Assembly: GCF_044324875.1 (NCBI RefSeq)
Contig: NZ_CP172185.1
Origin: Escherichia coli
Lineage (GTDB): Bacteria; Pseudomonadota; Gammaproteobacteria; Enterobacterales; Enterobacteriaceae
DNA: 64,000 bases
Strand: one strand, 5' to 3'
Made by a program: the position numbers and the translations under genes. Shown piece by piece: positions 2,284 through 4,897 of this stretch; position 1 is the first letter of the stretch; each line of letters begins with the position of its first letter. The notes beneath the pieces were generated by a model that was not told where the DNA came from, ran no database searches, and saw nothing but the letters and a program-made list of their open reading frames with translations.

Positions 2284-3492
2284 ATGTCCCGCGTGTCGCA
2301 GGCGAGGAACCTGGGTAAATATTTCCTGCTCATCGATAATATGCTGGTCGTGCTGGGGTTCTTTGTTGTCTTCCCGCTGATCTCTATCCGCTTCGTTGAT
2401 CAAATGGGCTGGGCCGCCGTCATGGTCGGTATTGCCCTCGGCCTACGCCAGTTTATTCAGCAAGGTCTGGGTATTTTCGGCGGAGCAATTGCCGACCGCT
2501 TTGGTGCCAAACCGATGATTGTTACCGGTATGCTGATGCGTGCCGCCGGATTCGCCACAATGGGTATCGCCCACGAACCGTGGCTACTGTGGTTTTCATG
2601 CCTGCTTTCGGGACTCGGCGGCACGTTGTTTGATCCGCCGCGTTCGGCGCTGGTGGTGAAATTAATCCGTCCACAGCAGCGTGGTCGTTTTTTCTCGCTG
2701 TTGATGATGCAGGACAGTGCCGGTGCGGTCATTGGCGCATTGTTGGGGAGCTGGCTGTTGCAATACGACTTTCGCCTGGTCTGCGCCACAGGGGCAGTTT
2801 TGTTTGTGCTGTGTGCAGCGTTCAATGCGTGGTTGTTACCGGCATGGAAACTCTCCACCGTACGCACGCCCGTTCGCGAAGGCATGACCCGCGTGATGCG
2901 CGACAAGCGTTTTGTCACCTATGTCCTGACGCTGGCGGGTTACTACATGCTGGCTGTACAAGTGATGCTGATGCTGCCAATTATGGTCAACGACGTGGCG
3001 GGCGCGCCCTCTGCCGTTAAATGGATGTATGCCATTGAAGCGTGTCTGTCGTTAACGTTGCTCTATCCTATCGCCCGCTGGAGTGAAAAGCATTTTCGTC
3101 TGGAACATCGGTTGATGGCTGGGCTGTTGATAATGTCATTAAGCATGATGCCAGTGGGCATGGTCAGCGGCCTGCAACAACTTTTCACCCTGATTTGTCT
3201 GTTTTATATCGGGTCGATCATTGCCGAGCCTGCGCGTGAAACCTTAAGTGCTTCGCTGGCAGACGCAAGAGCTCGCGGCAGCTATATGGGGTTTAGCCGT
3301 CTGGGTCTGGCGATTGGCGGCGCTATTGGTTATATCGGTGGCGGCTGGCTGTTTGACCTGGGCAAATCGGCGCACCAGCCAGAGCTTCCGTGGATGATGC
3401 TGGGCATTATTGGCATCTTCACTTTCCTTGCGCTGGGTTGGCAGTTTAGCCAGAAACGCGCCGCGCGTCGTTTGCTTGAACGCGACGCCTGA
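2284..3492 (+). CDS. mdtH: MFS multidrug efflux transporter MdtH
   Basis: ORF 2254-3492; ATG at 2284 gives [27 protein letters not shown]..., 12-TM MFS pattern. Confidence 0.9.
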
Positions 3493-3555
3493 TTTGATAC
3501 TCCCCCCTGACTCCTCCATACTGAAAGTGAACTGACAGCCAAATGGAGGAGTCAC

Positions 3556-4203
3556 GTGAAGCTATACATTTACGATCACTGCCCTTACTGCCTCAAAGCC
3601 CGCATGATTTTCGGCCTGAAAAATATCCCCGTCGAATTACATGTTCTGCTCAACGACGACGCAGAAACACCCACCCGGATGGTCGGTCAAAAACAGGTTC
3701 CCATTCTGCAAAAAGATGACAGCCGCTATATGCCAGAAAGCATGGACATCGTTCACTATGTCGATAAACTCGACGGCAAACCGTTACTGACCGGCAAACG
3801 TTCCCCTGCCATTGAAGAGTGGCTGCGCAAGGTCAATGGCTACGCCAACAAACTGCTGTTGCCGCGTTTTGCCAAATCGGCATTTGATGAGTTTTCTACT
3901 CCCGCCGCGCGCAAATATTTCGTCGACAAGAAAGAGGCCAGCGCGGGTAATTTTGCCGACCTGCTGGCCCACTCTGACGGTCTGATTAAGAATATCAGCG
4001 ATGATTTACGTGCGCTGGACAAACTGATCGTCAAACCGAACGCCGTGAATGGCGAACTTTCGGAAGATGATATTCAGCTATTTCCGCTCCTGCGTAATCT
4101 GACGCTGGTAGCCGGAATCAACTGGCCAAGCCGCGTTGCTGATTACCGCGATAATATGGCGAAACAGACACAAATCAATTTGTTATCATCAATGGCGATT
4201 TAA
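3556..4203 (+). CDS. grxB: glutaredoxin 2
   Basis: 215-aa ORF with CPYC active site (MKLYIYDHCPYCLKAR...); GTG start preceded by GGAGGA. Confidence 0.92.
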   Translation: MKLYIYDHCPYCLKARMIFGLKNIPVELHVLLNDDAETPTRMVGQKQVPILQKDDSRYMPESMDIVHYVDKLDGKPLLTGKRSPAIEEWLRKVNGYANKLLLPRFAKSAFDEFSTPAARKYFVDKKEASAGNFADLLAHSDGLIKNISDDLRALDKLIVKPNAVNGELSEDDIQLFPLLRNLTLVAGINWPSRVADYRDNMAKQTQINLLSSMAI

Positions 4204-4336
4204 TCCTGACCCGCCGCGGCAGCCTGTATTCGCGGGTTGCCGCCGTTTTCAGTTTTTTCTGCTGGCGCGTTTATCGCTGGTGACACATGCTGCGTTGTGT
4301 CAGGATATTGACGCAGATTTCATGTCGAGGACTACC

Positions 4337-4897
4337 ATGAACAAGTTTTTATTTGCCGCTGCATTGATCGTCAGTGGCCTGCTCGTTGGCTGTAATCAAC
4401 TCACCCAATACACCATCACCGAACAAGAAATTAACCAGTCGCTTGCGAAACATAATAATTTCTCAAAAGATATCGGTTTACCCGGCGTGGCTGACGCCCA
4501 TATTGTTCTGACAAACCTGACCAGCCAAATTGGTCGCGAAGAGCCGAATAAGGTTACCCTAACCGGAGACGCCAATCTGGACATGAACTCCCTGTTCGGT
4601 AGCCAGAAAGCGACCATGAAACTGAAGCTGAAAGCGCTGCCCGTGTTTGATAAAGAAAAAGGTGCGATCTTCCTGAAAGAGATGGAAGTGGTCGATGCGA
4701 CGGTACAACCGGAAAAAATGCAAACGGTGATGCAAACGTTGCTCCCCTATTTGAACCAGGCATTACGCAATTACTTTAACCAGCAACCAGCTTACGTCCT
4801 GCGCGAAGATGGCAGCCAGGGCGAAGCAATGGCGAAGAAACTGGCGAAAGGCATTGAAGTGAAGCCAGGCGAAATTGTCATTCCGTTTACTGATTAA
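4337..4897 (+). CDS. yceB: lipoprotein YceB (DUF1439)
   Basis: Internal ATG of ORF 4136-4897 gives MNKFLFAAALIVSGLLVGC lipobox signal peptide; 186 aa. Confidence 0.9.
   Translation: MNKFLFAAALIVSGLLVGCNQLTQYTITEQEINQSLAKHNNFSKDIGLPGVADAHIVLTNLTSQIGREEPNKVTLTGDANLDMNSLFGSQKATMKLKLKALPVFDKEKGAIFLKEMEVVDATVQPEKMQTVMQTLLPYLNQALRNYFNQQPAYVLREDGSQGEAMAKKLAKGIEVKPGEIVIPFTD

Follow-up and report, generated by a model that had tools for sequence, protein, structure and literature searches.

In the spacer between mdtH and grxB of Escherichia coli, a perfect 12-bp inverted repeat encloses the mapped transcription start of grxB, the gene for glutaredoxin 2. The left arm primarily represents the spacer and -10 element of the grxB promoter, and the right arm carries the Shine-Dalgarno (SD) sequence of the gene. 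Since the left arm lies upstream of the mapped start, the main grxB transcript cannot form the hairpin, and the element would at most silence read-through RNA, rather than regulate the grxB mRNA. The best-supported reading, which we hold tentatively and at somewhat less than even confidence, is that of a fold-back silencer of mdtH read-through that would have arisen in the Enterobacteriaceae. All positions refer to the window, i.e., the whole stretch of 64,000 nucleotides of DNA that was analyzed.

The grxB promoter and its genomic setting

The genes around the element are arranged in the order rimJ (minus strand), mdtH (plus), grxB (plus), yceB and pyrC. mdtH, which encodes an MFS efflux pump, occupies 2284-3492 on the plus strand according to the list of open reading frames (ORFs) and the RefSeq annotation of identical DNA, and its stop codon, listed as TGA at 3490-3492 (plus strand), is separated by a spacer of 63 nt from grxB, a 215-aa ORF on the plus strand (3556-4203; ORF list and RefSeq annotation) that opens with GTG at 3556. 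An MdtH homologue precedes grxB in nearly all Enterobacteriaceae loci. Within the species, the stretch 3380-3680 is present in 5425 of 5426 complete E. coli genomes, and it is 100% identical in O157:H7 and many further strains.

The promoter scan places the -35 hexamer TTGATA at 3494-3499 (plus strand), beginning 1 nt past the mdtH stop codon, and an extended -10 element, CCATACT, at 3516-3522 (plus strand; hexamer CATACT at 3517-3522, C at -13), with a spacer of 17 bp between TTGATA and CATACT. The sole grxB start in a genome-wide map (MG1655 1123304, minus strand, U00096.2; Kim et al., 2012, PMC3415461) falls, after conversion of the coordinates, on the G at 3529 of the window (plus strand), 7 nt after CATACT, and the same source gives grxB a 5′UTR of 27 nt and an upstream sequence ending in ...CTGACTCCTTCATACTGAAAGTG (Kim et al., 2012, PMC3415461, supplementary file 2). 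This start lies in the loop of the repeat, 10 nt past the end of the left arm, and the own 5′UTR of grxB, 3529-3555, does not include that arm. A first-pass annotation of this DNA had proposed that the hairpin controls translation of the grxB mRNA, and had named beforehand the position of the start relative to the left arm as the check by which the proposal would stand or fall; the start maps downstream of the arm, and translational control of the grxB mRNA by the hairpin is not borne out. The map holds no start sites inside mdtH, the next one upstream being that of mdtH itself (Kim et al., 2012, PMC3415461), and the promoter scan returned no other promoter-like site on the plus strand in 3200-3493.

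grxB appears among the genes listed as sigma-S/Crl-dependent and ppGpp-responsive. Its CCATACT element, with C at -13, presumably fits the sigma-S type -10 consensus (CYATAMT), and C at -13 is preferred by sigma-S promoters. By sequence, the features of a sigma-S type promoter are present, with CCATACT at 3516-3522, the start at 3529 and RpoS dependence listed for the gene. As in sigma-S promoters, the 3′ half of the left arm reads CCATACT and the start follows 7 nt downstream; unlike them, the grxB promoter has an extra conserved block, TCTCyT, at -20..-14 (3509-3515 of the window), and we know of no promoter element or regulator site to which this block belongs. K-12 and some further strains have T for C at 3516 (promoter position -13), so that the selectivity of the grxB promoter may be different in K-12.

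The terminator scan returned no terminator-like site in the 63-nt mdtH-grxB spacer, so that RNA from upstream could run into the element. Its three other plus-strand matches inside mdtH (at 3308, 3396, and 3456) have 3-4 G-C pairs each and are weak, and the first strong intrinsic terminator that it finds downstream of the mdtH promoter is situated between grxB and yceB (4216-4243, plus strand; 12-bp stem with 8 G-C, then a T run). For RNA that contains the left arm, mdtH is the sole plausible source. Published start-site, 3′-end and operon datasets (Cappable-seq, ROSE, Conway 2014, Adams 2021, Romero 2014 and the Rend-seq annotation) were searched for mdtH-grxB transcripts, and no RNA data for mdtH transcripts reaching grxB were found in them.

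Further features of the transcripts in this region were observed in passing. The final 30 nt of mdtH (~3462-3491) form a G+C-rich hairpin that reaches the mdtH stop codon and is followed by TGATTTG; this hairpin could act as a weak terminator, or it could be a coincidence of the coding sequence. In other genera the 3′ end of mdtH is different yet self-complementary again, e.g., GCGCCGG...CCGGCGC in Citrobacter. For yceB, the map lists a start site at a distance of 24 nt upstream (Kim et al., 2012, PMC3415461). The grxB mRNA (3529-4243 of the window) would be unusually stable for E. coli, its half-life being estimated at ~26 min, not 0.87 min, on re-analysis of rifampicin decay data (PMC10349824).

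The inverted repeat and its predicted hairpin

The repeat finder delimits a left arm, TGACTCCTCCAT, at 3508-3519 (plus strand), which corresponds to promoter positions -21 to -10, and a right arm, ATGGAGGAGTCA, at 3543-3554 (plus strand), which includes the SD sequence GGAGGAG at 3545-3551. The 23-nt loop between them (3520-3542, plus strand) begins with the final 3 bases of the -10 hexamer, continues through the discriminator, and then takes in the start site along with the leader's first 14 nt. The inverted repeat is perfect over 12 bp, and a single base (C3555) separates the right arm from the GTG codon at 3556. The first-pass annotation had described a perfect repeat of 11 bp; the repeat is real and perfect, while its length is to be corrected to 12 bp and its end to 1 nt before GTG. 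That the SD sequence lies within the right arm and would be occluded was recognized correctly for any RNA in which both arms are present: in such an RNA the SD sequence and the base preceding the start codon are predicted to be buried (the unpaired probability is ~0 for 3544-3553), and folding of the mdtH-grxB intergenic RNA, a check that had been suggested with the original proposal, yields the hairpin, with -26.8 kcal/mol for 3493-3600 (z = -3.5; none of 200 shuffles reached this stability) and a predicted -21.2 kcal/mol for the hairpin alone. Opening the ribosome site (3543-3561) is predicted to cost 19.5-23.1 kcal/mol in RNAs starting at 3300-3493 vs 10.1 kcal/mol in the own transcript of grxB, i.e., an extra ~10-13 kcal/mol in E. 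coli read-through RNA.

Inverted repeats that are perfect over 12 bp and enclose a loop of 3-40 nt occur twice in the window, against 0.12 expected from dinucleotide shuffles, but several such repeats arise by chance per E. coli genome, so that this statistic alone is not decisive. Likewise, among the 531 SD-like sites of the window the one of grxB has the best upstream complement only narrowly, its duplex energy being -22.1 kcal/mol vs -21.8 kcal/mol for the next, unrelated SD-like site. It is through conservation, not through the window statistic, that the repeat exceeds chance. The other perfect short-loop repeat of 12 bp, AAAAATACCGGC at 14030-14041 and 14047-14058 (loop of 5), is probably a terminator stem.

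Several other identities of the element were considered and set aside. It was ruled out as an intrinsic terminator by the missing U-tract and the 23-nt loop, as the stem is followed by CGTGAAGC and the terminator scan is silent on it. A leader peptide from the ATG at 3543 (an out-of-frame ORF of 58 aa) was rejected, given that there is no SD sequence upstream of it in the own leader of grxB and that the ATG is replaced by CTG or CAG in many genera. The two adjacent GGA motifs raised the possibility of a CsrA site, for which no evidence was obtained. An Rfam scan of 3000-4500 at a permissive E-value gave only chance-level matches on the minus strand, the best rows being rdlD (E = 0.35) and mir-186 (E = 1.4).

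The same data bear on the original proposal of a hairpin within the grxB mRNA that tunes translation, for instance as a thermometer-like or factor-opened anti-SD switch. The SD sequence is indeed buried in silico, and the proposal would hold given a second, upstream grxB promoter inside mdtH that is used under some condition. Such a promoter finds no counterpart in the map, in which the start is at 3529 and no further one is recorded up to the mdtH start, nor in the scan of 3200-3493 described above, and the promoter itself supplies the left arm. A match to an Rfam family is also missing (best E = 0.35, on the opposite strand), and the melting switches that are known are far less stable than this perfect stem of 12 bp and -21 kcal/mol. 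We consider this explanation highly improbable.

Conservation of the two arms across families

For comparison across species, 80 species-level loci encoding GrxB were assembled, which together with the window gave 81 sequences, 59 from Enterobacteriaceae and 22 from Erwiniaceae; the matches listed by a GrxB protein search are close relatives, 87-100% identical and mostly from E. coli. TTTG and CATACT are found at equal spacing in all 81 sequences, and a 13-nt block, TCTCyTCCATACT (-20 to -7), is conserved in both families, Escherichia departing from it at -20 and -19 with GA instead of TC. In 11 Pantoea-like loci (Erwiniaceae) mdtH is absent and rimJ lies divergently upstream, so that no co-directional gene precedes grxB. 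The block is retained in these 11 loci as well, which indicates that the left box has a promoter-level function of its own.

The right arm has a narrower distribution. Enterobacteriaceae have a short leader (5′UTR of ~25-42 nt) and a GTG start, and their SD region, (A/C)TGGAGGAGAAAC, pairs with (G)TTTCTCyTCCAT over 10-14 bp. In modeled read-through RNAs beginning 60 nt upstream of the -10 element, the pairs of this register are predicted with P>0.5 for 55 of the 59 Enterobacteriaceae and for 2 of the 22 Erwiniaceae, and the cost of opening the ribosome site in the read-through RNA exceeds that in the own transcript by a median of +9.7 kcal/mol in the former and +0.25 kcal/mol in the latter. 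As Erwiniaceae with the same box do not pair, the long complementarity appears to have been added and is not an automatic by-product of the box; among the families compared, alignment and folding confine it to the Enterobacteriaceae. On a separate note, the grxB leaders of Erwiniaceae are longer (~50-77 nt) and have a stem-loop of their own, which those of Enterobacteriaceae do not. It is located ~20-60 nt upstream of grxB in loci L059-L077 and L079 (e.g., at ~2455-2480 in L067 and ~2460-2482 in L059) and shows apparent covariation, with AAAGGGTGAC...GTCACCCTTT vs CAGCGTGAC...GTCACGCTG.

Within the stem, the columns of the core are invariant, and they are uninformative on pairing because each is constrained anyway, by the sigma-S type -10/spacer box on one side and by the SD sequence on the other. 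Informative columns are those of the outer stem, at -19 to -25 of the promoter, for which no promoter or SD constraint is obvious. Here Escherichia has GAC/GTC, most genera have TTC/GAA, and Citrobacter and Salmonella have a mismatch at that site; relative to the latter two, the right arm of Escherichia has changed at two positions in the pair-creating direction. In taxa whose spacer between SD and start codon is 1 nt shorter (GAGAACGTG), namely Siccibacter turicensis, the Cedecea group and L078, the stem runs over the grxB start codon and a G is found at the matching left position in six of six, the sister species S. colletis having the TTT/AAA form. Across the alignment, the outer 7 pairs are paired in 65.7% vs 57.4% in shuffles (0 of 500 reach 65.7%) and the covariation score is 0.264 vs 0.141 when shuffled and at most 0.175 in slid registers, a control that related sequences can beat without any structure. 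The flank at the top of the stem is at chance level, columns 18-20 being paired in 12-34% of sequences. Judged from the alignment, compensatory change appears real but thin, amounting to two or three independent lineage events.

The main rival explanation is coincidence, namely that a pyrimidine-rich box and a purine-rich SD sequence are complementary by chance and that the two-armed RNA is biologically irrelevant. We regard this as a substantial possibility, although one well below even. The box is conserved to an equal degree in Erwiniaceae, among them Pantoea in which no co-directional gene lies upstream, and this speaks for promoter reasons; with G-U pairs allowed, moreover, a purine tract rich in G can pair with nearly every pyrimidine tract. 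The invariant core, the only marginally best duplex energy among the 531 SD-like sites and the chance-level flank point the same way. Template switching could, in addition, mimic compensation without selection, as quasipalindrome template-switch mutation can copy changes between arms. Coincidence accounts less readily for a contiguous stem of 10-14 bp in 55 of 59 Enterobacteriaceae despite changes at the unconstrained outer positions, for the two pair-creating changes in the right arm of Escherichia, and for the Erwiniaceae that have the same box together with an AGGAGA SD sequence and do not pair.

The pattern of variation also bears on whether the repeat acts as RNA or as DNA. Among genera, the offset between CATACT and GGAGG spans 26-44 nt, with the arms remaining in register, and the commonest arm substitution, a left-arm C>T present at one column in 23 of 50 sequences, leaves a U-G pair in place. 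The varying loop length and the C>T changes that keep U-G pairs favor an RNA hairpin over a protein-binding dyad of fixed spacing. A DNA-level element, modulating the grxB promoter either as a dyad-symmetric protein site or as a cruciform, would be in keeping with arms that flank the start (-21..-10 and +15..+26) in the region covered by RNA polymerase, and with a spacer box conserved beyond the needs of the -10 element. It is nonetheless very unlikely, as an arm-anchor offset of 26-44 bp among genera is incompatible with a rigid dimer, the T opposite G in K-12 and many species is a mismatch in DNA and a pair in RNA, Erwiniaceae keep one arm only, and cruciform extrusion is disfavored by a 23-nt loop. 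A hairpin in minus-strand RNA was considered too and is disfavored, since the frequent U-G pairs would turn into C-A mismatches there, an asymmetry between the strands that rests mostly on one column.

In E. coli itself, 3493-3560 is identical in 3844 of 5415 genomes and differs somewhere in 1571 of 5415. The variants sampled are located in the loop, where polymorphisms cluster at 3528, 3532, and 3536, in the C-run upstream, or at 3516 (the C>T of K-12), and the arms are invariant in the sampled genomes bar this one C>T, which retains a G-U pair. Among other Enterobacteriaceae, the metagenome-assembled genome L040 is the sole locus without any mdtH (rimJ and grxB are ~216 bp apart), and its left arm is degenerate and does not pair; pairing is retained in Cedecea sulfonylureivorans (L054), in which mdtH is replaced, and in Dryocola boscaweniae (L048), in which mdtH is a C-terminal remnant.

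The loss of pairing in L040 would also be expected if the hairpin served mdtH, by protecting its processed mRNA from 3′ exonucleases or as a pause or processing site. The fold is stable, begins 15 nt past the mdtH stop codon and is possible only in mdtH-derived RNA, all of which suits such a role. Lacking a U-tract, however, the hairpin is no intrinsic terminator, no 3′ end at this site is among the entries listed in the Term-seq supplements searched, and the hairpin is missing in Erwiniaceae that have mdtH; in several genera, moreover, the stem covers the grxB start codon, which points to translation rather than to 3′ protection. We consider a role in mdtH expression unlikely.

Possible fold-back silencing of mdtH read-through and related systems

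Fold-back inhibition reportedly protects IS10/Tn10 from external promoters, and read-through transcripts of IS50/Tn5 are said to be subject to it as well. The grxB repeat resembles these cases in that its distal arm covers the SD region (3543-3554, with GTG at 3556), that transcription starts between the arms (3529), leaving the own mRNA without the upstream arm, and that only RNA from outside contains both arms, its translational silence being predicted here. The differences are that grxB is a chromosomal housekeeping gene whose upstream neighbor is fixed, not a mobile element in unknown contexts, and that its proximal arm doubles as spacer and -10 element of a stationary-phase promoter. Fold-back of the IS10/IS50 kind, in which only mdtH-derived RNA has both arms and would be silenced, is the account that we favor with due reserve, placing it a little short of an even chance.

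Hairpins that mask SD sequences are also known from 5′UTRs, and the grxB repeat shares with them (ROSE and fourU thermometers, riboswitch platforms, operators) a CU-rich strand that pairs with the SD sequence and would block the 30S subunit. Unlike in these systems, the anti-SD strand lies outside the gene's own mRNA (5′UTR 3529-3555, left arm ending at 3519), and the stem is perfect and very stable (-21.2 kcal/mol), with no sensor domain and no Rfam match. Masking of the SD sequence therefore seems plausible from the predicted fold, though outside the grxB mRNA proper. Like the hairpins of translational coupling, the stem would mask a downstream SD sequence between two co-directional genes; unlike in coupling, the mdtH stop codon (3490-3492) is located 15 nt before the stem, which begins at 3508. 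At this distance, by the geometry, a terminating ribosome should not unwind the stem, an argument that draws on the size of the ribosome footprint, which is well established, and the geometry favors silencing over coupling. The equal stop-to-stem spacing in other genera is explained by the stop codon abutting the -35 element.

For fold-back silencing, the steps would be as follows. The repeat would represent an overlap of the grxB core promoter (left arm) and the grxB ribosome-binding site (right arm). Transcription from the own promoter, starting between the arms, would yield an mRNA with a short, open leader of 27 nt and a strong SD sequence, whereas RNA arriving from mdtH, the existence of which we infer, would carry both arms and fold in the cell into a stem of ~-21 kcal/mol that buries the SD sequence. 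Translation of grxB from the read-through RNA would be blocked, and this RNA, being untranslated, would probably be exposed to Rho. Synthesis of glutaredoxin 2 would then follow only the gene's own stationary-phase promoter. In evolutionary terms, Enterobacteriaceae may have evolved, on an older grxB promoter, an SD sequence complementary to its spacer and -10 element, giving a built-in insulator that would restrict translation to RNA from this one, sigma-S promoter and would probably trigger Rho termination of mdtH read-through, a scenario that we put forward as possible and at rather less than even probability. Among the points that weigh against fold-back silencing, Erwiniaceae with mdtH upstream show no such hairpin, and mdtH is probably weakly expressed, so that selection for insulation might be weak.

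If the complementarity is a coincidence, the finding is an ordinary one. In either case, it carries a caution for annotation, in that SD-sequestering hairpins predicted from DNA need a start site before they are labeled as riboregulators. If fold-back silencing holds, the output of glutaredoxin 2 would be tied to the gene's own stress-responsive promoter although grxB begins 63 nt past an unterminated neighbor, and one and the same stretch of DNA would be a promoter element and, once transcribed, an anti-SD sequence. It would also provide a chromosomal example of a mechanism that has so far been tied to insertion sequences, and if the arrangement is general, it could likewise serve other closely spaced co-directional genes that have internal promoters.
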